DNA from: Escherichia coli
GTDB taxonomy: Bacteria; Pseudomonadota; Gammaproteobacteria; Enterobacterales; Enterobacteriaceae
Direction: 5' to 3' (one strand)
Length of the DNA: 64,000 nt
Assembly (NCBI RefSeq): GCF_013315695.1
Contig: NZ_CP054353.1
Every line of letters begins with the position of its first letter. Positions within the stretch are counted from its first letter, which is position 1. Made by a program: the position numbers and the translations under genes. Positions 4,509 to 59,489 of this stretch are shown here, piece after piece. The notes beneath the pieces are model-generated. The model made no database searches, was not told the origin of the DNA, and saw nothing but the letters and a program-made list of their open reading frames with translations.

Positions 4509-6671
4509 ATGGCCTTTATGCTAAGTCCTTTGCTCAAACGCTATACCTGGAACAGCGCCTGGCTGTATTACGCGCGTATTTTTATTGCGCTTTGTGGAAC
4601 CACAGCGTTTCCGTGGTGGCTGGGTGATGTAAAACTGACGATTCCGCTGACGCTGGGGATGGTGGCAGCGGCGCTGACCGATCTCGATGACCGACTGGCG
4701 GGACGTTTGCGTAACCTCATCATTACGCTGTTCTGCTTTTTTATCGCCTCGGCCTCAGTAGAACTGCTGTTTCCCTGGCCCTGGCTATTTGCGATTGGCT
4801 TAACGCTCTCAACCAGCGGCTTCATTTTGCTCGGCGGTCTGGGTCAACGCTATGCAACAATTGCCTTCGGTGCGTTACTGATCGCCATTTACACTATGTT
4901 GGGGACGTCACTGTATGAGCACTGGTATCAGCAGCCGATGTATCTGCTGGCCGGTGCCGTCTGGTACAACGTCCTGACACTTATTGGTCATCTACTGTTC
5001 CCGGTCCGCCCGCTGCAGGACAACCTGGCGCGTTGCTATGAACAACTGGCGCGTTACCTTGAGCTCAAGTCGCGCATGTTTGATCCTGATATTGAAGATG
5101 AAAGCCAGGCACCGTTGTACGATTTGGCTCTCGCCAACGGTCAGCTGATGGCGACATTGAATCAGACGAAACTCTCGCTGCTGACCCGCTTACGTGGCGA
5201 TCGTGGTCAACGGGGAACGCGTCGCACGCTGCATTATTACTTCGTCGCGCAGGATATTCACGAGCGTGCCAGCTCTTCTCATATTCAGTATCAAACATTG
5301 CGTGAACATTTTCGCCACAGCGACGTGCTGTTCCGTTTTCAGCGGCTGATGTCGATGCAGGGCCAGGCGTGCCAGCAACTGTCACGTTGTATTTTGTTGC
5401 GTCAGCCTTATCAACATGATCCGCATTTCGAGCGCGCTTTTACGCATATTGATGCTGCGCTGGAGCGGATGCGCGATAACGGCGCACCTGCCGATTTACT
5501 CAAAACACTGGGATTTTTGCTGAACAATTTACGCGCCATTGATGCCCAACTGGCAACAATTGAATCAGAACAGGCCCAGGCACTGCCCCATAATAATGAC
5601 GAAAATGAGCTCGCTGATGACAGCCCGCACGGATTGAGTGATATCTGGCTGCGTCTTAGCCGTCACTTCACGCCGGAATCCGCCCTCTTCCGTCATGCGG
5701 TAAGAATGTCGCTGGTGTTGTGCTTCGGCTACGCCATCATTCAGATAACCGGAATGCATCACGGGTATTGGATCTTGCTGACAAGTTTGTTTGTCTGCCA
5801 GCCAAACTATAACGCCACGCGCCACCGCCTGAAGTTAAGGATTATTGGGACGCTGGTCGGTATCGCCATTGGCATTCCTGTGCTGTGGTTTGTACCGTCA
5901 CTGGAAGGGCAACTGGTGCTACTGGTTATTACCGGCGTGCTCTTTTTTGCCTTCCGTAACGTGCAATACGCCCATGCAACGATGTTCATCACACTTTTGG
6001 TGCTACTTTGTTTTAACTTGCTGGGTGAAGGTTTTGAAGTGGCGTTACCTCGCGTAATCGATACGCTGATTGGTTGTGCCATTGCGTGGGCGGCGGTGAG
6101 CTACATCTGGCCTGACTGGAAGTTTCGCAATCTGCCGCGCATGCTCGAACGTGCCACCGAGGCCAACTGTCGCTATCTCGATGCCATACTGGAGCAATAC
6201 CATCAGGGGCGTGATAACCGTCTGGCGTATCGTATTGCCCGCCGCGATGCACACAACCGTGATGCCGAACTGGCGTCGGTGGTATCAAATATGTCCAGCG
6301 AGCCGAACGTTACCCCGCAAATTCGCGAGGCCGCGTTTCGGTTGCTGTGCCTTAACCATACGTTTACCAGCTATATCTCAGCCCTCGGTGCTCACCGGGA
6401 GCAGTTAACTAATCCTGAAATTCTGGCGTTTCTTGATGACGCAGTTTGCTATGTTGATGGCGCGTTACATCATCAACCTGCTGATGAAGAACGCGTCAAT
6501 CAGGCATTAGCTGGCCTGAAACAGCGGATGCAGCAACTTGAACCACGGGCAGACAGCAAAGAACCTCTGGTCGTACAACAAGTTGGGTTATTGATTGCAT
6601 TACTGCCAGAGATTGGTCGTCTGCAACGCCAGATTACTCAAGTTCCGCAGGAAACTCCTGTTTCGGCGTAA
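4509..6671 (+). CDS. yccS: Inner membrane protein YccS (putative efflux/FUSC-like family)
   Basis: 720-aa polytopic membrane ORF matching YccS; true start could be the ATG at 4518. Confidence 0.85.
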   Translation: MAFMLSPLLKRYTWNSAWLYYARIFIALCGTTAFPWWLGDVKLTIPLTLGMVAAALTDLDDRLAGRLRNLIITLFCFFIASASVELLFPWPWLFAIGLTLSTSGFILLGGLGQRYATIAFGALLIAIYTMLGTSLYEHWYQQPMYLLAGAVWYNVLTLIGHLLFPVRPLQDNLARCYEQLARYLELKSRMFDPDIEDESQAPLYDLALANGQLMATLNQTKLSLLTRLRGDRGQRGTRRTLHYYFVAQDIHERASSSHIQYQTLREHFRHSDVLFRFQRLMSMQGQACQQLSRCILLRQPYQHDPHFERAFTHIDAALERMRDNGAPADLLKTLGFLLNNLRAIDAQLATIESEQAQALPHNNDENELADDSPHGLSDIWLRLSRHFTPESALFRHAVRMSLVLCFGYAIIQITGMHHGYWILLTSLFVCQPNYNATRHRLKLRIIGTLVGIAIGIPVLWFVPSLEGQLVLLVITGVLFFAFRNVQYAHATMFITLLVLLCFNLLGEGFEVALPRVIDTLIGCAIAWAAVSYIWPDWKFRNLPRMLERATEANCRYLDAILEQYHQGRDNRLAYRIARRDAHNRDAELASVVSNMSSEPNVTPQIREAAFRLLCLNHTFTSYISALGAHREQLTNPEILAFLDDAVCYVDGALHHQPADEERVNQALAGLKQRMQQLEPRADSKEPLVVQQVGLLIALLPEIGRLQRQITQVPQETPVSA

Positions 6672-12953: not shown

Positions 12954-13517
12954 TTACGGTAGACGCTTTATCTCTTGCGCAATAGAAGCGGCTTCCTGAC
13001 TCCAGATACTGGCCAGCACTTTAACCATTTCATCGTAACCATCCTGAGTTTGCATCCCTTCCAGACGGAACGGACGTTTGATCAGTTGTCCCTGGTGGTT
13101 CAACAGCCACTCACCACTGACAATGACCTTGCCATCATAGCGACCGTTAAACTCCGTGACGGTAACATTGAGCGTGTCCTGGGCGCTTCCCAGAGGCTGG
13201 GAGGCAACCACCCAGCCGGGCAGTTGCGTACTCAGGTTGGCAACCAGGGTGTTGCGCAACTGTTGATCCAACGGGCTGGCCCACAAGTTGTTGTTGGCAA
13301 TCACATACTTCACATCACTAGTTTGATAAACCACACCATTCCCCGCCAGATAGTCAGGAACAGCGACCTGCTCTACCCATAACAGGCGATTACCCTGGCT
13401 GGCGGTACTTTGTGTACCGCTCTGCACCACAGGTAACTGGTAATAGTTTTTATTAATTTCGCCGGAGCTGCATCCGGCCAGCCACAGTGCTGCAATCGTC
13501 ACTAGCCACTTTTTCAT
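12954..13517 (-). CDS. pqiC: Lipoprotein PqiC (YmbA), paraquat-inducible MCE pathway
   Basis: 187 aa with lipoprotein signal (LAGCSS lipobox); matches PqiC. Confidence 0.85.
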   Translation of the reverse strand: MKKWLVTIAALWLAGCSSGEINKNYYQLPVVQSGTQSTASQGNRLLWVEQVAVPDYLAGNGVVYQTSDVKYVIANNNLWASPLDQQLRNTLVANLSTQLPGWVVASQPLGSAQDTLNVTVTEFNGRYDGKVIVSGEWLLNHQGQLIKRPFRLEGMQTQDGYDEMVKVLASIWSQEAASIAQEIKRLP

Positions 13518-20666: not shown

Positions 20667-21776
20667 GTGGCGACATTAACCCGGCTTTTTATTCATCCTG
20701 TTAAATCGATGCGCGGCATTGGTCTTACACATGCTCTGGCAGATGTCAGTGGTCTGGCCTTCGATCGCATCTTTATGATCACGGAACCTGACGGTACGTT
20801 TATTACTGCTCGCCAGTTTCCCCAGATGGTACGGTTTATTCCTTCACCTGTGCATGATGGCTTGCATCTCACCGCACCAGATGGCAGTAGTGCATATGTT
20901 CGTTTTGCTGATTTCGCCACACAAGACGCACCAACCGAAGTTTGGGGCACACATTTTACCGCGCGAATTGCGCCAGACGCGATCAACAAATGGCTAAGTG
21001 GATTTTTCTCCCGCGAAGTGCAATTACGCTGGGTGGGGCCACAAATGACCCGGCGCGTGAAACGCCACAACACTGTACCCCTGTCATTTGCTGATGGTTA
21101 TCCTTACCTTCTTGCTAACGAGGCCTCGTTACGTGATCTCCAACAACGTTGTCCGGCCAGTGTAAAAATGGAGCAATTCCGCCCCAATCTGGTGGTTTCC
21201 GGTGCATCGGCCTGGGAAGAAGATAGCTGGAAAGTGATTCGCATTGGTGATGTCGTGTTTGATGTGGTTAAGCCTTGTAGCCGCTGTATTTTCACCACCG
21301 TCAGCCCAGAAAAAGGGCAAAAACATCCGGCAGGCGAACCATTAAAAACGCTGCAATCTTTCCGTACTGCCCAGGATAACGGCGATGTCGATTTTGGTCA
21401 GAATTTAATTGCCCGTAATAGCGGCGTGATTCGCGTTGGCGATGAGGTGGAAATTCTGGCAACGGCTCCAGCTAAAATTTACGGCGCAGGTGCCGCCGAT
21501 GATACTGCCAACATCACGCAACAACCGGACGCAAACGTAGATATTGACTGGCAGGGACAGGCATTTCGTGGAAATAACCAACAGGTGCTGCTGGAGCAAT
21601 TAGAAAATCAGGGAATTCGTATCCCTTATTCTTGCCGCGCGGGCATTTGTGGAAGTTGCCGTGTTCAGCTTTTAGAAGGCGAAGTCACGCCGCTGAAAAA
21701 ATCAGCAATGGGTGATGATGGCACTATTCTTTGCTGTAGTTGTGTACCGAAGACTGCACTTAAGCTGACGCGTTAA
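20667..21776 (+). CDS. ycbX: MOSC-domain protein YcbX with C-terminal 2Fe-2S ferredoxin-like domain
   Basis: 369 aa; C-terminal cysteine cluster [11 protein letters not shown]...CCSC; matches YcbX. Confidence 0.85.
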
Positions 21777-33210: not shown

Positions 33211-34002
33211 ATGGCAACGCCAGTGAAGAAGTGGTTATTGCGCGTTGCCCCCTGGTTTTTACCGGTGGGCATCGTGGCGGTGTGGCAACTGGCCTCCTCG
33301 GTTGGCTGGCTATCGACGCGTATTTTGCCCTCACCGGAAGGAGTGGTGATGGCGTTCTGGACGCTCTCTGCCAGCGGCGAATTGTGGCAGCATCTGGCGA
33401 TCAGCTCCTGGCGGGCGTTGATTGGCTTTTCAATTGGCGGATCGCTGGGCTTGATTCTGGGACTGATTAGCGGGCTGTCGCACTGGGGAGAACGGCTGCT
33501 GGATACCTCCATTCAGATGTTGCGCAACGTGCCGCATCTGGCGCTGATCCCGCTGGTGATTTTGTGGTTTGGCATTGATGAATCCGCAAAAATCTTTCTG
33601 GTGGCGCTCGGTACGCTATTCCCCATTTATATCAACACCTGGCATGGCATCCGTAATATCGACCGTGGGCTGGTGGAGATGGCACGTAGCTATGGATTAT
33701 CCGGCATACCGCTGTTTATCCATGTGATCCTGCCTGGTGCCCTGCCCTCAATTATGGTCGGTGTGCGTTTTGCTTTGGGCCTGATGTGGCTGACGCTGAT
33801 CGTTGCCGAAACTATTTCTGCCAATTCCGGCATTGGTTATCTGGCGATGAATGCGCGGGAGTTTCTGCAAACGGACGTGGTGGTAGTCGCTATTATTCTT
33901 TACGCCCTGCTCGGCAAACTTGCTGACGTCAGCGCGCAGCTGTTAGAGCGTCTCTGGTTGCGCTGGAACCCGGCTTATCATTTGAAGGAGGCCACGGTAT
34001 GA
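33211..34002 (+). CDS. ssuC: Aliphatic sulfonate ABC transporter permease SsuC
   Basis: 263-aa membrane protein from ATG 33211. Confidence 0.9.
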
Positions 34003-47030: not shown

Positions 47031-47062
47031 TCAGAAACAGGAAAGGCGGCATCGCTGCCGCC
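47031..47062 (-). terminator. Probable mukB terminator
   Basis: ggcggcatcgctgccgcc hairpin immediately after mukB stop with T-rich tract on minus strand. Confidence 0.55.
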
Positions 47063-47068
47063 TCAATC

Positions 47069-50000
47069 TTAGCTCGCCTGGGAAGGCGCTTCGTCAGTTC
47101 CTGGAAGTGTTTCAGGGAGTTGCGGTGCAAAGCCACGCAGGCCGACGACGTGAACGTGTTCGGTATTCTGGAAGACTTTACGTACCAGTTTATAGGTGGT
47201 GCCTTTTTCCGGACTGATATTTTCCGGCGCTGCGATGATGAGCTGCATTTGCAAACGCTCACACAATTCAAACAGCGTGGCGATGGAACGAGCATCCAGT
47301 CGCGCTGCTTCATCAAGGAACAGCAGACGGCAAGGAGAGATATCTTTACCGCGCAAGCGGCGAGATTCATCTTCCCAACTCTGTACCACCATCACCAGAA
47401 TCGACATACCGGTACCAATAGCCTCACCGGTCGACAATGCACCAGACTCCGCGCGCAACCAGCCATCGGAACCACGGTTAACCTCAACTTCCATTTCCAG
47501 ATAGTTGCGGTAATCCAGCAGTTCTTCGCCAATGGTCTGCGGCGTGCGTTGCCCCATATCAATCTGCGGATTAAGACGCTGATACAGTTTCGCCAGCGCT
47601 TCTGAGAAGGTCAGACGGTTGCTGTTAAACAGATCCTGATGTTGCTCATGCTGTTCAGAGAGCACATCCAGCAGCATGGCGTGCGTTTCACGCACGTTCA
47701 CGTTGAGACGCACGCTGTTCACCTGGCCAAACGATACGCTCTGCAAGCCCTGGTTGAGCATACGGATACGGTTCTGCTCGCGCTGAATGGTTTTGCGAAT
47801 AATGTTCGCCACGCTGCGGGAACTGATCGCCAGTTTCTGTTCGCGGGAGGTTAACTCTTCGGTCAGACGGCTAAGTTCGATCTCCATCTGTTCGATAGCT
47901 TCCACCGGATCATCGGTACGAATAATATCCTGACGAATACGTTCACGCAGATGCTGATAAACCGCCACGAAGAACTGAATTTTACGTTCCGGACGTTTTG
48001 GATCTTCCGACATACGCAGCACGTCGCGCAGATGTTCGTTATCCGCCACCGCCAGACGCAGCGCACCTAACGCCTTATCCGACATGGAACGCAAATCATC
48101 AGCGGAGAGATAAGCCAGCTCACGACGGTGTAAGCGGCGCTCAACGCCGTTATCTTTCACCATGCGCATGACTGCACACCAGCCCGCTTTCGCGGTCACT
48201 ACCTGCTCGCGCATCTCAAAGTAATCCCGCTCCAGCTTGCGCAGTTTGCGGGTCAGGTTGTCCATCTCTGCTTCGCAGAAGGTAAGCGCTTTTTCCAGTT
48301 GATTGCGGCGTGAACGGTTATTGCTCAGTTGCGCGTGCAACTCGTCACGGCGAATACGCGCCCGCTCTTCTGCCCCGCTATCAGCACGCACGCCGATATC
48401 CTGCAATTCACGTTGCAGATCGTTGAGTAGCTCTTTTTTGGTGTCGTAAGAACTTTTCAGCGAAGCCAGCACCTGGTTGTACTGACTCAACTGCGCTGCG
48501 TGTCCGCGCAACGCTTCACGCGCGCGGGTACGCTCCGCTTCCGCCTGTTCCAGACGTTCACGCAGTTTTTCGTTGAGATCGCTGTTACCGCTAAGCATTT
48601 CTGCCGAGTCAGAGTAGCTAAAGTGCGCACGACGCTGCACCACTTCCGTCAGGGCAAACGCCTGCTGACGGGCATCGCGCTGCATCTGCTGAGAGTACGC
48701 GTAATCTTCTTTTAATTGTTCGAACTGTTCCGGGTCACTCTGCAATACCGAAACGATCGGTTCCAGTTTCGCCAGTTGATTACCGAACTGCTGAACAAAA
48801 CGCGCGGCTTCCTGGGCTTCATCCAGACGTTCGCGGATTTCATCGACGCGATCCGCCAGGCTGTCATCAGCCAACAAGTTGAGACGCGGCAGAATGCGGT
48901 TCAGCGCCGTAACACCCTCTTTCGCCTGCTCAAACTGAATACGCTGCTGCTGGTTATCATTTTCATGATTACTCAACGCCCGCTCCAGTTCGACGCGACG
49001 GCTGTTCAGTTGACGGATTTCGGCTTCCGGATCAGACTCAAACGCCACCGCCAGGTGGCTGCCGATAAAGCGGCTGAACGCCTGATGCAGACGCTGGGTT
49101 TTCTGTACATCAAAGGAGAGCGTGGCGAAGCGTTCGGAAAGCACTTCACGCTCGGCATGGAGGCTTTCAATACGGCTTTCACGCGCAGCACGACCAAACA
49201 GCGGCACTTCCGGGAAACGTGAATAACGCCACTGACGATCGGCGATTTTCACCACCACCGCTTTTTCCAGCTCATCAACGCTGAACACGCTGTCATCGAA
49301 TGACTGCGGATCCCCTTCGATCAGATAGAGATCTTCCGGGCAATCGGTCAAGCCTTCCAGGTGTTCGGTTACCTGTGACAGATCTGGCACCACGATGGCG
49401 TGGCGTGACGGGCCATACAGCGCTGAGAAGTACGGCGCATCTTCCAGGCTAACGTCGTCATAAATTTCTGACAGCAGCACGCCGCCAAAACGCTCCGCCA
49501 GCGCATTCAGACGCTGGTCTTCAGAACCACCTGGCTGGCTTAAACGTTCGATCTCTTCATCGACGGCGTTTTTGCGCGCGCCTACTTCATCGCGTTCAAC
49601 AATGGCTTCGCGCTCACGCTCCAGCAACTGTTGCAGATATTCGGTGACATCCTGGCTGGAGGAGAACTCTTCGCCGCACTGTTCGCTCAACTGGTTGAGA
49701 CTGTTTTGCGCAGCCAGCCAAACCGGCGCACGCCGCATCAAACTCTGAATGCGAGACTGCAGCTGTTCCTGCTCCTGGCGCAGTGTCATCCGCTCTTCAC
49801 GGGCGTTAGACACGCTATCGGAAAGAGAGGCAATGCGTGCTTCCAGCTCCTGATGCAGAGCTTCCAGCTCGTCAATGTCAAAATTCTTGCCCTGACGTTT
49901 GCAGAAATCTGCCAGCAGACGCTCAGCTTCTTGCTGCTCACGCAGACGCTGTTCCAGTTCGCTTAAGCGCATCCGCAACGGCTGAACCTGCTCTGCCAGG

Positions 50001-51529
50001 TGACGCTGATCGACCCCTTCGCGCAATAGTTCGCGAGCGACATCCCACGCCTCGTTACGCGCCAGCGGGCCGTTGATTGCCACCACCAGCTGATAAGCCT
50101 GCTCAAACTGGCTGTGCGCGGTTTGCGCCATGCTCATTTTCTGCTCAAGAGAGAGCATTTTTTCGGTCGCTTCCAGCTCTTTCGCCTGGAAGGTTTCCAG
50201 CCATTCGGCGGCGCTGTCGGCGGTTAAGTCCGGCAGATGGCACAGTTCTTTGGCACGATTAAGCGCAGCAATCGCCTGGTTATACTGGATCGCGCGCGTT
50301 TGCTGGACGTCCAGCGCCTGCTGGTAGTCAGCAAGCTGGCTTTTCAGCTCGTCCACTTCCAGTTCGGCAGCTTCCGCACGAGCCTCGTTCTCTTCCTGGC
50401 GTTCGATGGCTTCTGCCACCACTTCGTTTTGCTCTTCCAGACGGATCTGCAGCTCATCGAGATCCGCTTCGTAGCGTTCGATCTTCTCCTGCTGACGCAG
50501 TGCGGTTTGCACCAGGTTCAGGTGATCGCTGGCCGCCTGATAATCTGCTTCCAGATCGCCTTCGGCACCGTTGTGCTCTGCCAGCTCACGCGCCATATCG
50601 ACGTGTTTGTAATGCTCAGCCGCCAGTTGCTGACGCGAAGTGTGTAGCTCGCGACGAAACTCCAGGGCTTTGTCGAGATGGACACGGCGCTCGTTGGCGT
50701 GACGCATGTAGTCCGCCGCCACGTAGTTGGTGGCTTCGCTAATCAGATGCTTAAACAGGTCGCGGTCCGACTGGGTGACACGAATCGCTTCCAGCGTCAT
50801 GCGGTTTTCGCGCAGCGCCGCTTCCATGTCCTGGAACGCTTTCCGCACGCCGCTGTTTTCCGGCAACAGGTAGTCGCGCAGAGAGCGCGTAATGGCGCTG
50901 GAGATCCCGCCGTACAGCGAAGCTTCGATCAGACGATAGAATTTACTACGGTCAGACGCTGAGCGCAGACGACGCGCGATGATGCCCAGATCGAACATCA
51001 GCGAGTGGTAATCGGTAATGGAGTTGAACTGTTTAAACTGCACGCCTTCCATCGCCTCGAGCTTGTCTTTCAGCTCGTTAAGCGGCAGCACGCGCGCCTG
51101 ACGTTCGCTCAGGGTTTCGGTCACCAGTTGTGTCGGCTGCACCGACATCGGTAAACCCTGAATGGCAAACGGTTTGATATCCACTTTACGATCGCGTCCG
51201 GCAACCTGTTGCAGACGCACACCGACCACCACGCGCTGGTGGCGCGAGTTAATGGTGTCGAGCATCGAATAACAGACACCCGCTTTCAGCTTACCGTGCA
51301 GACCTTTATCGCGCGAACCGCTGGTGGCCCCGGCTTCCGTGGTGTTACGGAAATGCAGCAGGGTCAGGTCGGGGATCAGCGCCGTAACGAACGCCGCCAT
51401 GGTGGTGGATTTACCCGCCCCGTTACCGCCAGAAAGCGTCGTGACCAGCTCGTCAAGGTCAAAAGTTCGGGCAAAAAAGCCGTTCCAGTTAATCAGCGTC
51501 AGTGAGCGAAATTTACCGCGTTCAATCAT
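47069..51529 (-). CDS. mukB: Chromosome partition protein MukB (SMC-like condensin)
   Basis: 1486 aa, Walker [10 protein letters not shown], long coiled coils. Confidence 0.95.
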
Positions 51530-52233
51530 TATTCTTCCTCTCCGCTATCTGGCTGATTCTCTTCGGTTTCATCGTTGAGTTGCAGATGATTTTCAATCGG
51601 CATTGCTTCGCCATCACGAATCAGGCGACGCTGTGCTTCACGGGGATCGTCGCCAGCACGCACATCGGCTCCGAAGCGGAACACCGATTCGGTAATGCGG
51701 AACTTGCTGCTGTCGTGGCCCATAAACCACACCATACCCAAACGACGCAGACGGTTGAGCGAAGAACGTACTTTCTCCTGCAACTTCTGGCGGTCAACGT
51801 CTGAACCGGTTGAACGGTTGTTCACCAGTTTCAGCAGTTTCGCTTCATCGGCCAGGGTGAGCAGTTCGTCGTACAGTTCCTGCTGGGTGAAAATCCCCTC
51901 GTTCGCCAGCCGTTCCGGGCTGAGATAGAGATAACAGAGGATTTTCCCGACCATCATATCCAGTTCCGACAAGACGGAACGCGGGATAAGAGTGGTGGAA
52001 CGTGGGCGTAAATAGAAGAACCCTTCCGGTGCGCGAATAAGCTCAACGTTATAACGCGCGTAAAACTCTTCCAGATATTCCTGAAAATCCATCAGGAATG
52101 CATGATTATCCAGTTCGTCGAGGCCAATATGGCGGCCTGAACGTAAGGCGCTATCCAGCGCCGGAAATAACGGATTCGCCAGCGCCTGCGCCAGCTTAAC
52201 CGGCATCACTTGTTCAATATTTGTCGATGACAT
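51529..52233 (-). CDS. mukE: Chromosome partition protein MukE
   Basis: 234 aa from internal ATG ([14 protein letters not shown]...); acidic C-terminus; overlaps mukF 3' end and mukB start. Confidence 0.88.
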
Positions 52234-53536
52234 GCGCCTGTACCTTGGCTCCGTAATCATTAATCGGCTGCCATTTCGCTGGCAGTCCGGTGAAATCTGC
52301 TTGCGCTACGCCAAGACGTACCGCCTGATCAATAACAATGCGCGCAACGTCAAAGTGACGTGCACGCGGATACTGTGACAGATATTCGCGTACCACCAGA
52401 CCAAGATCCAGCGGCACTTGTCTGGTTTTGTACACGGCAAGTTGTTCTTCAATGATCGCCGCCAGCTGTTCGCGGATCTCGTTAAACTCTTCGTACTCCA
52501 GATCCTCAGGAAGTTCCCCAGTCACTTCTTCATCGCGCAGTGCCATCTCTTCGTCACGCATATCCAGCAGACGATCGGCATTGGCATAAGTTAGCGCCCA
52601 CGGCTCATCAAAATAGGTTTGTACCGACTGACGTAACCGCTGAGCAAAGACGCGGTTTTTATCCATATCGATTGCGGTACGGATAAATTTGTGTACGTGG
52701 CGGTCGTAGCCAATCCACAAGTCGATGGATTGCTGGCCCCAACTGATAATACGGTCAAGTTTGCTCTGCAGATCGAACACCAGACGATCGACAAAATGCA
52801 GATCGTCATGGGTCATCGTCGCATCCTGAATGCGCAACAGATTAGCCTGCAATTTGTCGCCTGCCGCTTCCAGCGTATCCTGCAATTCACGCAGCGTTCC
52901 GGAAGTTTCCGAAAGCAACAATTCACAGCTGGAGATCGCCGCCCGCCAGTCTTTGTTCAGCAACTGGGCGATATCGTCCTTCACCTGCTGCTGCTGTTCG
53001 TCCATCAGACGTTGCGTCAGGTCGATACTGTCGAAAATTTCTGCTACCGAATATTTCAGTGGCGCATAAACATTACGGTGCCAGTGAAATTCATCACCGC
53101 CCTCTTCGGCGGCATCTGCCGCGCGTTTGAGCTCACCCGCCACAATCGACAACTGCATAGAAAGGCGCAGCGTAGAAAACTCGCGCTGACGGATGTAATA
53201 GTCAGTAATGCCGATGCCGAGCGGCGTCAGACGGTAAATTGCGTTCCCTTCCGCCTGCTCGCTGGTAAAGCGGTTCAGCAGACGTTGACGCACCATGTCG
53301 TTGATCGCGTTGTTGGCACGCACGCCGATGGTTTCGCTGGTTTGCTCAAACGCATCACTCACATGGCGGAATGCATCCACCAGCTCGCCTTCACTCATCT
53401 CACCATCCAGACGCTCTCCGTTCAGCGTGGCAACCGCCAGCAGAAAAGAGAGTCGGTCTACCGGCAGCGAGATGGAGAAGTCATTTTTTCTGGCCCAGGC
53501 AACCAGTTCGGGGACTGTCTGGGAAAATTCACTCAT
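52214..53536 (-). CDS. mukF: Chromosome partition protein MukF (kleisin)
   Basis: 440-aa ORF matching MukF. Confidence 0.92.
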
Positions 53537-54318
53537 ACTTTATCCTTGCTCTGCGGTTTGCGCGCGGTGACATGAATATAACGCCCCAGGGTAATATACG
53601 GTTCCTGACGGCAATAACGCGTTTCTAATTCAAGTAATGCTTCATAGCAGTCGCGCTGCTGGTGCTTCTCGCGCAGATAATCATGAAACACACGAACGCC
53701 TGTCTTACCCATAATTTGCCAACCAGCTTCTTCCAGCCACAGATAAACCTGCGCCGGGTCGCGTGGATAATCTGGCGAAAGCGTCCGTTTTTTCTTTTTC
53801 GGCATTCCCGCCTGCACGTAATCAAAATTCCCGGCGACCATGTTATGCATCAGCAAGCCGTGCGCATTGTAGAACATTAACGACAACACGCCGCCTGGAC
53901 GCAACACTGACCACAGGGTCTGTAATACGCTGCGGGGATCGGCCACCCACTCGAGCACCGCATGGAACAATATCAGATCAACGGGCGTTTCCAAATGCGA
54001 AGCAACATCCTGAGCGGCGCAATGTATAAATTGCATGTTGTCGCTCACACCTTTTGCTTCTGCCGCCTGTTTTGCGCGGTCGATCATCTGCGCAGAAAGA
54101 TCGCATAAAATGACCTGATGCCCGCGCTCAGCCATTTTGATTGCGGTCTGCCCTTCTCCACCGCCAGCATCCAGCACACGCAGTTTTTGCGGGCCCATTT
54201 CCGCCAGCACGCGATCGAGATCCTGCCACAGAATAGCCTGTCGAAGCTGCCCTTTGGTGGTGCCGTAAATGTTACGGGAAAACTTTTCCGCAATATCATC
54301 AAAATTGCGATCCTGCAT
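53533..54318 (-). CDS. cmoM: SAM-dependent methyltransferase CmoM (SmtA)
   Basis: 261 aa from internal ATG ([13 protein letters not shown]...); Rossmann methyltransferase motif [13 protein letters not shown] overlap with mukF. Confidence 0.88.
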
Positions 54319-54453
54319 TGCTTTCTCCACCGGTTGGCTAAGACGTTTTCTGATAAAGACGCTATTTTGTCACAGCCACGGCGAGAATGAACCCGTCTGG
54401 TGTAATATCGCTGGCGATCCCTTGCTATATGGTTAAAAAAGGAACCAGAAAGG

Positions 54454-55233
54454 ATGCTTTTTACACTGAAAAAAGTGATTGGCAATATGTTGCTGCCACT
54501 TCCGCTGATGTTGTTGATTATTGGCGCTGGCCTGGCGCTGCTGTGGTTTAGCCGTTTTCAAAAAACCGGGAAGATTTTTATTAGCATTGGGTGGCTGGCG
54601 CTCTTGTTATTGAGTTTGCAACCGGTAGCCGACCGCCTGCTGCGTCCCATCGAAAGCACCTATCCGACATGGAATAATTCGCAAAAAGTGGACTATATCG
54701 TGGTGCTCGGAGGCGGTTATACCTGGAACCCACAGTGGGCACCGAGTTCGAATTTAATCAATAACAGTCTGCCACGCCTGAATGAAGGTATTCGCTTATG
54801 GCGCGAAAATCCGGGATCAAAACTGATCTTCACGGGAGGCGTAGCAAAAACCAATACGGTGAGTACAGCGGAAGTAGGTGCCAGAGTTGCGCAATCGCTG
54901 GGCGTACCGCGCGAGCAAATTATCACCCTGGATTTGCCAAAAGATACCGAAGAAGAAGCTGCGGCAGTGAAACAGGCGATTGGTGACGCACCTTTCCTGC
55001 TGGTGACATCTGCGTCTCATTTGCCGCGGGCGATGATCTTTTTTCAGCAGGAAGGGTTAAATCCGCTACCAGCCCCGGCGAATCAGTTGGCCATCGACTC
55101 GCCGCTTAACCCGTGGGAACGGGCAATCCCTTCTCCGGTCTGGTTGATGCATAGCGATCGTGTTGGCTATGAAACGCTTGGCCGCATCTGGCAGTGGCTA
55201 AAAGGTTCGTCAGGCGAGCCACGGCAAGAGTGA
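54454..55233 (+). CDS. elyC: Envelope biogenesis factor ElyC (YcbC), DUF218
   Basis: 259-aa ORF with N-terminal TM segment; matches ElyC. Confidence 0.85.
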   Translation: MLFTLKKVIGNMLLPLPLMLLIIGAGLALLWFSRFQKTGKIFISIGWLALLLLSLQPVADRLLRPIESTYPTWNNSQKVDYIVVLGGGYTWNPQWAPSSNLINNSLPRLNEGIRLWRENPGSKLIFTGGVAKTNTVSTAEVGARVAQSLGVPREQIITLDLPKDTEEEAAAVKQAIGDAPFLLVTSASHLPRAMIFFQQEGLNPLPAPANQLAIDSPLNPWERAIPSPVWLMHSDRVGYETLGRIWQWLKGSSGEPRQE

Positions 55234-56256: not shown

Positions 56257-57182
<926 letters not shown>

Positions 57183-58502: not shown

Positions 58503-59489
58503 CTAGTTGCCAGAAGCCAGCGAGGTTAGTTGCGCAAGCAGTTTCGCTGGTTCATCACCTGAAAGCTGTGCGTCTACAGGCAAATACCACCAATTTTCTT
58601 CTGCAAAGGCCCGGCATTTCACCGCATCTTTTTCAGTCATTACCAGCGTTTGCCCAGCGCTGACCAACGCGCTGACATCCGCATGATTCAAAGACTGATG
58701 ATCGGCCAGCGGTACACATTTTTCCGGTTGTACGCCACACATCTTCAGCGTGGCAAAAAAGCGCGGCGGATGACCAATCCCTGCCATCGCCACCACATGT
58801 TCAAGCTGAGCAACGTCACAACGCGTACCGGTACGTAAATTCACCGCCTGACCCGGCAGCAGATGCATGGGGATTTCACCGCTGCGGGGGACACCACCGT
58901 TGACGATTACCGCATCAACGGACTTTAAGCGCCCCGCTCGCTCACGCATTGGCCCCGCCGGCAACCACCAGCCATTGCCAAAGCGACGCACACCATCAAT
59001 AACGACAATTTCCACATCACGCGCCAGACGGTAATGCTGTAAACCGTCGTCGGTTACGATGATCTGCACATCAGGGTGTTGCGCCAGAATGGCTTTTATC
59101 GCATCAGAACGCACGGGAGAAACCGCAACAGGCGCATCAGTGCGTTGATAAATCAACACAGGTTCATCACCCGCCTGTGCTGTGGTGGTATCTGCCGACA
59201 ATAACAGCGGATAAGATTCAGCCTTACCACCATATCCCCGCGATACGACCCCCACGCGAATACCGCGCTGTTGCAACTGTTCCACCAGCCAGACAACGAC
59301 CGGGGTTTTTCCGTTGCCGCCTGCGGTGAGATTACCAACCACGACAACCGGTACGGGGGCACGCCAGGCGCGCTTCAGTTTTAGTTTATAGCAAAGACGG
59401 ATCGCGCCACTCACCAGGCCATACAACCAGGAGAGTGGCAGCAATAGCCGCCACAAAGGGGATTCACCAGACCAGATTTTTTCGATCAT
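58503..59489 (-). CDS. lpxK: Tetraacyldisaccharide 4'-kinase
   Basis: 328 aa, P-loop [12 protein letters not shown]. Confidence 0.92.

Follow-up and report, generated by a model that had tools for sequence, protein, structure and literature searches.

The question raised by this locus is whether the overlapping reading frames of cmoM, mukF, mukE and mukB mean that translation is coupled throughout the operon, as the sequence-only reading had claimed. The window, by which we mean the whole 64,000-nucleotide stretch of DNA analysed, is E. coli chromosome with approximately 99% identity to strain SMS-3-5. Open reading frames, RefSeq mapping and Pfam place four co-directional genes on its minus strand in the order cmoM(smtA)-mukF-mukE-mukB, with the coordinates annotated by RefSeq in the near-identical SMS-3-5 genome:

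47069..51529, minus strand: mukB, SMC-like ATPase, 1486 aa (RefSeq mapping, Pfam).
51529..52233, minus strand: mukE, 234 aa (RefSeq mapping, PDB, Pfam).
52214..53536, minus strand: mukF, kleisin subunit, 440 aa (RefSeq mapping; Pfam KicB, MukF_M and MukF_C).
[quoted passage not shown]
47043..47064, minus strand: terminator-like hairpin directly 3' of the mukB stop, at the end of the operon (consensus scan; stem of 9 bp, 6 of them GC, followed by a T-rich tail).

The smtA-mukFEB operon and its co-transcription are already in the literature (PMC4255302, PMC9239193), and the region was found in 5,425 of 5,426 complete E. coli genomes, with up to 100% identity over 3.1 kb. A terminator-like hairpin was placed by the consensus scan after mukB only, the remaining matches being weak, intragenic and at chance level; no internal promoter or terminator above chance was detected at the cmoM-mukFEB junctions, and an Rfam scan of the whole window returned the PyrD leader only, with no match near the operon. 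The upper limit of the feature had previously been set at 54330, which is merely an upstream in-frame GTG of the maximal reading frame; it lacks a Shine-Dalgarno sequence (SD) and was rejected as the cmoM start, whereas the annotated ATG at 54318 has a GGAGA SD 5 nt upstream. A 294-aa antisense reading frame opposite mukF (52691..53575), having no Pfam match, was treated as a shadow ORF.

The three overlaps were reported correctly, and all match RefSeq:

53533..53536, minus strand: ATGA, a 4-nt overlap of the cmoM stop TGA and the mukF ATG (read 53536..53533).
52214..52233, minus strand: 20-nt mukF/mukE overlap, from the mukE ATG (52233-52231) to the mukF TGA (52216-52214).
51527..51531, minus strand: TAATG, in which the mukE TAA (51531..51529) and the mukB ATG (51529..51527) have base 51529 in common.

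These are the known operon in its normal, annotated form, and their discovery value is small, since any E. coli annotation already contains the genes and overlaps, and bacterial genes are most often spaced by short stop-start overlaps. Of the 36 adjacent gene pairs in the window that share a direction, 11 overlap, six through ATGA, and overlaps make up 11 of the 21 such pairs lying less than 40 nt apart; PMC10666635 gives -4 as the most frequent spacing in E. coli and places 24% of unidirectional pairs between -8 and +6. The pattern in the window is no more than chance, such overlaps being common between adjacent bacterial genes. The other ATGA junctions listed alongside the muk genes are all real, at ssuA/ssuD (32054-32057), ssuC/ssuB (33999-34002), ycaR/kdsB (57000-57003) and msbA/lpxK (59486-59489), although the last two pairs had been written in window order and not in the order of transcription. 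Both of these have weak ribosome-binding sites, which among the ATGA pairs listed would make them more suitable than the muk genes for testing whether coupling is obligatory. A further ATGA junction, absent from that list, lies at pqiB/pqiC (13514-13517).

The new element here is the comparison of the junctions across species, for which spacings in Enterobacteriaceae were taken from a scan of genome contigs and those in distant lineages were obtained one by one via representative MukE proteins. All 79 Enterobacteriaceae species compared carry the 20-nt mukF/mukE overlap, as do three further Enterobacterales: Rahnella (overlaps 4/20/4), the metagenomic Enterobacterales-like locus L092 (20/1) and Ca. 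Symbiodolus (8/20/7), the last retaining a nearly unchanged junction sequence at 61% MukE identity. It is missing from most lineages outside the order, where, in a small sample of eight mukF/mukE junctions with starts set by a gene caller, the two genes are mostly 1-85 nt apart. At mukE/mukB the spacing in Enterobacteriaceae is -1 in 75 of 80 species, -4 in three and -8 in one, and always one of these values (80/80); where the mukE stop has mutated, the junction changes from TAATG to ATGA and stays closed. This overlap is also present in seven of eight divergent MukE loci with a mukB junction, drawn from Enterobacterales and from lineages outside the order, with one lineage outside Enterobacterales having mukE and mukB 138 nt apart. 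The cmoM/mukF spacing is -8 in 33 species, -4 in 11 and +3 in 32, always within -8 to +3. Conservation across species, which had been suggested as a check on the overlaps, is borne out for mukF/mukE, which is invariant in the family, and for mukE/mukB, which is widely kept, but not for the exact geometry of cmoM/mukF. Very long acidic tails are present in some of the MukE homologues.

This comparison bears on the main competing explanation, namely that the overlaps are a by-product of genome compaction combined with ribosome-binding sites inside the upstream genes, each muk gene being translated independently from its own SD. The shifting geometry at cmoM/mukF is in keeping with such an explanation. 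The restriction of mukE/mukB to the canonical coupling classes in every Enterobacteriaceae species, the persistence of that overlap in the divergent loci and the replacement of a lost stop by ATGA, not by a gap, speak against it.

Variation within the operon was measured as third-position entropy in 15-codon windows (n=1,032) over an alignment of 76 sequences, the window and 75 Enterobacteriaceae species. Entropy in the operon falls to its three minima at the three junctions; the lowest-entropy window of all 1,032 covers the mukF 3' end and the mukE initiation region, and the second lowest is a block at the start of mukF:

53486..53533, minus strand: nucleotide-invariant block, mukF codons 2-17 (0.20 bits; operon median, 1.01).

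In the block of mukF codons upstream of the mukE ATG, which includes four-fold synonymous sites, the third bases of TAC, GGA, GCC, AAG, GTA, CAG and CAT are invariant in 76/76 sequences. The T of ATG 52233 is itself a synonymous mukF site, yet it too is invariant in 76/76, while the corresponding T of the non-start ATG at 52260 is C in 13 of 76. The junction 66-mers occur unchanged in 5,398 and 5,404 of the 5,425 E. coli genomes compared, whereas no more than 468 of these match the full 3.1-kb region at 99% identity or better. Judged from these alignments, the junctions are under clear selection and are the least variable DNA of the operon, and ATG 52233 itself is under selection. However, this synonymous-site conservation could be explained by ribosome-binding and dual-coding constraints without coupling. 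The junctions, and especially the approximately 45 nt around the mukE start, accept almost no change, and designs for tagging, deletion or recoding should therefore spare them.

Each downstream ribosome-binding site sits inside the end of the preceding gene:

53543..53547, minus strand: AAGGA, mukF SD within the cmoM 3' end (sequence context; CAAGGAU/anti-SD duplex, -5.2 kcal/mol).
52234..52258, minus strand: mukE translation-initiation region within mukF, with GGAG at 52252-52249 and AAGGU at 52246-52242 (no variation, even where mukF sites are four-fold synonymous).
51536..51543, minus strand: GGAGAGGA, mukB SD, encoded by the acidic C-terminal mukE codons (..SGEEE*) (sequence context, alignment).

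In the alignment the mukF SD is kept while the surrounding CmoM C-terminus differs in length, and at mukB the form G[A/G]GGAGGAAGA is conserved. Duplex energies of -5.2 (mukF), -5.8 and -3.9 (mukE) and -6.6 kcal/mol (mukB) compare with a window median of -5.8 kcal/mol, and because the three SDs are of about median strength, independent initiation is possible at all three genes, as the compaction explanation would have it. Folded as single sequences, the three junctions do not exceed shuffled controls in stability (z = -0.55, +0.91 and -0.41), and no conserved helix over the mukB SD was found in 56 sequences (the window and 55 species), the RNAalifold consensus reaching only -5.3 kcal/mol and lying away from the SD. 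With no conserved RNA structure found at the junctions there would be nothing for an upstream ribosome to unfold, which again favours independent translation. Coupling of the RNA-unfolding type, in which a ribosome-binding site held in conserved structure is opened by upstream translation, was rejected on these fold z-scores and on the weak consensus at mukE/mukB.

Termination-reinitiation depends on spacing. Candidates for it are co-directional pairs spaced at approximately -4 to +3 nt (PMC12548453), a range in which cmoM/mukF (-4) and mukE/mukB (-1) fall; mukF/mukE at its annotated start (-20) does not, and would have a suitable spacing, +7, only if Met10 were the start. Spacings of -4 and -1 occur most often and generally go with coupling, which was seen in the majority of E. 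coli pairs tested at such distances; this weighs against compaction alone, as does the enrichment of short overlaps among heteromeric complex subunits reported in PMC10666635. Of five tested E. coli ATGA pairs, one, bioBF, is uncoupled despite its -4 overlap, a point in favour of compaction, and another is only ~60% coupled. Coupling efficiency drops steeply once an overlap exceeds 4 nt and is nil at -25 (reviewed in PMC12548453), so that mukF/mukE is the junction least likely to couple by reinitiation. By analogy with these pairs, coupling is plausible at cmoM/mukF and mukE/mukB and doubtful at mukF/mukE. A literature search found no experiment or paper demonstrating coupling in the cmoM-mukFEB operon, and a search for MukB, MukE and MukF ribosome-profiling numbers gave nothing usable. 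Strains with a functional chromosomal mukE-mYPet fusion are described in PMC8523169; on that description the native TAATG is probably inessential for adequate MukB, a point in favour of independent translation.

The explanation we prefer, to which as a whole we give a probability of about 0.8, is that of a known operon with normal packing, each downstream ribosome-binding site lying in the end of the gene before it. Ribosomes finishing cmoM at ATGA and mukE at TAATG would probably restart on mukF and mukB, assisted by the resident SDs, and restart at mukE/mukB would link MukB output to that of MukE. The mukE gene is most likely initiated independently, at the conserved AAGGU and GGAG upstream of ATG 52233, and ribosomes translating mukF would at most keep that site unfolded. 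Independent initiation of mukE agrees with the 4:4:2 stoichiometry of MukBEF (MukB4:E4:F2; PMC8602292), in which MukE is about twice as abundant as MukF, since pure reinitiation could not give that ratio. Compaction with no coupling at any junction we consider unlikely. Of the proposal that the overlaps indicate coupling across the operon, the gene identities, the overlaps and, as a reasonable inference, coupling at cmoM/mukF and mukE/mukB survive; the operon-wide statement is too strong, given that the literature search found no demonstration, that bioBF is uncoupled, that one overlap is 20 nt long and that the genes have their own SDs.

The 20-nt overlap itself depends on which of three in-frame ATGs (52260, 52233 or 52206) begins mukE, the first and last of which are as follows:

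52258..52260, minus strand: upstream in-frame mukE ATG, 243 aa, without SD; ACG in 16 of 79 species.
52204..52206, minus strand: alternative in-frame mukE ATG, Met10, 225 aa, without SD, beginning 7 nt past the mukF stop and so leaving no overlap; invariant across all 79 species.

The upstream ATG was rejected for its poor conservation and lack of an SD. The second candidate, Met10, is a minor possible alternative to the annotated 234-aa start. Were it the true start, as an older annotation of 225 residues had it, mukF and mukE would not overlap and mukE would be reached by reinitiation past the mukF stop. The invariance of Met10 throughout the Enterobacteriaceae species would fit this, as would its +7 spacing, which is within the efficient coupling range (PMC12548453), the crystallisation of 225-aa MukE constructs (7V8P, 3RPU) and a Pfam MukE model that starts at residue 10. 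Syn61 also retains forbidden codons in mukE because of revised gene coordinates, according to PMC13287592; in the window the long form has TCA TCG as its second and third codons, the two serine codons undecodable by Syn61-delta-3, which suggests that these are the codons concerned, and the viability of that strain suggests in turn that a start downstream of them can supply MukE. However, ATG 52206 has an SD duplex of only -0.2 kcal/mol, whereas ATG 52233 does not vary, although it contains a synonymous mukF position, and follows an invariant, SD-bearing block. L092 and Ca. Symbiodolus keep the 20-nt overlap and an MSS/MSL N-terminus and have no Met10, distant MukE homologues all have 8-13 residues ahead of the conserved core, and 234 aa is the length used by current RefSeq and by structures 3EUH and 9GMB. 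We therefore hold Met10 as the true start to be very improbable.

A dual start, with SD-driven initiation at ATG 52233 (234 aa) and a post-mukF restart 7 nt on at the SD-less Met10 (225 aa), is a speculative proposal with little chance of being correct. If true, it would yield one MukE per MukF by the coupled route and extra MukE by the independent route, helping to set the 2:1 MukE:MukF ratio, and would account for viable recoded strains with undecodable TCA/TCG at long-form codons 2-3. That mukE has been annotated with two different starts has already had a practical consequence, undecodable codons remaining in a recoded genome.

The closest known system is the E. coli K-12 smtA(cmoM)-mukF-mukE-mukB operon (Yamanaka et al., 1995/1996, cited by PMC4255302 and PMC9239193), which the window matches in gene content and order, in protein lengths (261/440/234/1486 aa) and in overlaps (4/20/1 nt); there is no substantive difference, the window strain being a non-K-12 strain with its ~99% identity to SMS-3-5. 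Other gammaproteobacterial MukBEF operons and MksBEF-type condensin clusters (loci L083-L093) have the F-E-B order in one operon, as in E. coli, but unlike E. coli the mukF/mukE spacing outside Enterobacterales is usually +1 to +85 nt, and L083, the sole outside-order locus with enough upstream DNA, shows no cmoM upstream. The geometry of canonical ATGA/TAATG termination-reinitiation (Huber et al., 2019, PMC6728339; 2023, PMC10666635; review, PMC12548453) is shared exactly by cmoM/mukF (-4) and mukE/mukB (-1), and MukE and MukB are subunits of one complex, a class enriched in short overlaps (PMC10666635). The operon departs from such pairs in that the 20-nt mukF/mukE overlap is outside the efficient range and cmoM has no functional relation to the Muk complex.

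The operon under consideration, cmoM (smtA)-mukF-mukE-mukB, is textbook material (PMC4255302; PMC9239193). The whole window is approximately 99% identical to E. coli SMS-3-5, and gene coordinates were obtained by mapping the RefSeq gene table of that strain onto it. The three overlaps proposed in the sequence-only reading are real, the coordinates of each ORF being equal to those of RefSeq:

53533-54318, minus strand: cmoM, 261 aa, methyltransferase by Pfam
52214-53536, minus strand: mukF, 440 aa, Pfam KicB/MukF_M/MukF_C
51529-52233, minus strand: mukE, 234 aa, Pfam MukE
47069-51529, minus strand: mukB, 1486 aa, Pfam MukB N-terminal, hinge and Walker B domains
53536-53533, minus strand: cmoM/mukF junction, cmoM TGA and mukF ATG forming ATGA
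52214-52233, minus strand: mukF/mukE junction, mukE ATG (52233) 20 nt ahead of the final mukF TGA base (52214)
51529, minus strand: mukE/mukB junction, one shared base, mukE TAA and mukB ATG forming TAATG

Position 54330, which had been given as the upstream limit, merely marks where the maximal ORF has its first in-frame GTG. The cmoM gene is annotated from the ATG at 54318, which has a GGAGA Shine-Dalgarno (SD) 5 nt upstream; none was found ahead of the GTG, and the start-aligned codon is ATG or GTG in every related species. A 294-aa ORF antisense to mukF (52691-53575, plus strand) was not matched by any Pfam model and is most probably a shadow ORF. Of 5,426 complete E. coli genomes, 5,425 contain the 3.1-kb region surrounding the junctions, at up to 100% identity and annotated with the same four genes; the remaining one lacks it, and four plasmid-labelled records of the collection also carry a copy.

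The overlap feature is already known and ordinary. Among co-directional neighbours in the window 11/36 pairs overlap, as do 11/21 of those less than 40 nt apart, so that three successive overlaps within one operon are unremarkable and the pattern is no more than chance. Six of the 11 are ATGA and the remainder 1, 8, 10, 20, and 35 nt; across E. coli a spacing of -4 (negative values denoting overlap) is the commonest, followed by -1 and -8, and 707/2,987 unidirectional pairs are spaced between -8 and +6 (PMC10666635). The four further ATGA junctions named previously (ssuA/ssuD, ssuC/ssuB, kdsB/ycaR, and lpxK/msbA) all exist in the window. Further co-directional overlaps, not named there, are:

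13514-13517: pqiB/pqiC, the sixth ATGA junction
31098-31105: ssuE/ssuA, 8 nt
26451-26460: elfC/elfG, 10 nt
24313-24347: ycbV/ycbF, 35 nt

Convergent 3'-end overlaps also occur at yccS|sxy (38 nt, 6634-6671), ycbX|zapC (4 nt, 21773-21776), and elyC|ycbJ (24 nt, 55210-55233). Elsewhere in the window, an IS1 copy (29629-30403; InsA 30066-30341 and InsB 29644-30147, both minus strand) occupies the place of the 5' end of SMS-3-5 elfD, elfA, and the region upstream of elfA. As elfD is reduced to a 188-aa ORF and elfA is absent, this strain probably has no active elf (ycbQ) fimbrial operon. An Rfam scan of the whole window at the gathering threshold returned the PyrD leader (RF02373, 23494-23567, minus strand, 97.9 bits) and no other family.

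What is added here is a cross-species survey of the junctions, together with evidence bearing on where mukE starts. In a single scan of species-representative genomes, with the four genes placed by tblastn, 80 Enterobacteriaceae species were recovered. The 20-nt mukF/mukE overlap was found in all 79 loci spanning that junction and an overlap was kept at mukE/mukB (-1 in 75, -4 in 3, -8 in 1), whereas the geometry of cmoM/mukF varies (-8 in 33, -4 in 11, +3 in 32). At loci with a mutated mukE stop, the junction has turned into ATGA instead of opening. Other Enterobacterales hold to this arrangement: in operon order, the overlaps are 4/20/4 nt in Rahnella and 8/20/7 nt in the insect symbiont Ca. 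Symbiodolus (MukE 61% identity), which has an almost unchanged junction sequence. Outside Enterobacterales, eight loci were reached via divergent MukE representatives; with starts as set by the gene caller, mukF to mukE spacings were +34, +85, +56, +7, +52, -8, -32, and +1, and those from mukE to mukB -1, -1, +138, -17, -4, -11, and -8. These spacings indicate an ancient, broadly distributed overlap at mukE/mukB, a 20-nt mukF/mukE overlap characteristic of the order Enterobacterales, and a cmoM/mukF junction that is tight but not fixed.

An alignment of the window with 75 species, from cmoM through 600 nt of mukB, has a typical entropy of approximately 0.4 bits per site. Entropy falls lowest in three stretches: across the mukF/mukE junction (52260-52201; 0.04-0.12 bits per site), over mukF codons 2-17 (53486-53533; ~0.06), and at the mukE/mukB junction (0.16-0.19). 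At third codon positions the last 15 mukF codons rank first of 1,032 windows (0.14 against a median of 1.01 bits), and the four-fold synonymous sites of mukF GGA, GCC, and GTA upstream of the mukE ATG, in a stretch that codes for MukF alone, are invariant in 76/76 sequences. Within E. coli, 66-nt segments at cmoM/mukF and mukF/mukE are identical in 5,404 and 5,398 of 5,425 genomes respectively, and the mukE/mukB segment in 3,102; at least 99% identity across the whole 3.1 kb is found in just 468. Across these Enterobacteriaceae, mukF codons 2-17 hardly vary at the nucleotide level (entropy 0.20 at third positions, where the median is 1.01), and cmoM and mukB are far less conserved at their 5' ends. 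A small hairpin, CCCAG...CUGGG, is predicted in this stretch of mukF, although the region is not significantly structured. General selection on initiation regions may account for this conservation.

In mukF, ATG 52233 supplies its T to the third, synonymous position of a His codon, and this T is constant in the 76 sequences. As an internal control, the T of the in-frame ATG 52260 also falls at a third position, in a mukF Asn codon, and is C in 13/76; this second ATG was rejected as a chance occurrence. Selection has thus preserved ATG 52233 as an initiation codon, and it is concluded to be a genuine mukE start. An alternative start that would abolish the overlap had been envisaged; selection on ATG 52233 and its upstream block speaks for the overlapping form, but additional use of Met10 (ATG 52206, 7 nt past the mukF stop; 225 aa) retains a slim chance. 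Met10 is invariant across Enterobacteriaceae, was the mukE start in older annotation, and is where the Pfam MukE model begins (residue 10); E. coli MukE has been deposited in the PDB at both 225 and 234 aa. In the window the long form has TCA TCG at codons 2-3, which Syn61-delta-3 cannot read, and the viability of that strain hints, if its codons match those of the window, that a downstream start could supply MukE. Syn61 retains forbidden codons in mukE owing to revised coordinates (2026 recoding paper, PMC13287592). As a sole start, however, Met10 lacks an SD and would leave the selection on ATG 52233 and its upstream block unaccounted for; moreover, two Enterobacterales lineages without Met10 retain the overlap (Ca. 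Symbiodolus and a metagenomic locus, the latter with 20 nt at mukF/mukE and 1 nt at mukE/mukB), and all distant MukE proteins carry a short leader ahead of the conserved core.

With ATG 52233 as the start, the earlier proposal of translational coupling across the operon is reasonable for cmoM/mukF (-4) and mukE/mukB (-1) but weak for mukF/mukE. Reinitiation is efficient between -4 and +3, falls fast as the overlap grows, and is nil at -25 (PMC12548453); of five E. coli ATGA pairs put to the test, three are strictly coupled and one is coupled to ~60%, whereas bioBF is uncoupled. A literature search found no experiment on coupling in this operon. On this basis ribosomes probably reinitiate at the cmoM/mukF and mukE/mukB junctions, while mukE would mostly be initiated independently, at its own conserved site. 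Such a start would suit the MukB4E4F2 complex (PMC8602292): demand for MukE would be about twice that for MukF, which restarting ribosomes alone could not meet, and MukB and MukE would be needed equally, an equality that tight coupling would favour.

Each downstream start has an SD within the upstream gene: AAGGA for mukF (duplex energy -5.2 kcal/mol), AAGGU with GGAG farther upstream for mukE (-3.9/-5.8), and GGAGAGGA, from codons of the MukE acidic C-terminus, for mukB (-6.6), all near the window median of -5.8 kcal/mol. The three junction regions folded no better than shuffled sequence (z = -0.55, +0.91, -0.41), and the weak structure derived from the alignment at mukE/mukB does not occlude the SD; coupling of the "unfolding" type is therefore without support. 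The SDs of lpxK (junction 59486-59489; -1.5 kcal/mol) and kdsB (57000-57003; -3.1 kcal/mol) are weak against the same median, and by this measure both look more coupling-dependent than the muk genes.

Some distant MukE homologues (P0127, P0130, P0133, and P0136; core identity 50-58%) reach 450-574 aa, the extra length lying in very long C-terminal tails that are acidic and of low complexity, whereas in E. coli MukE the acidic tail is short and doubles as the mukB ribosome-binding site.
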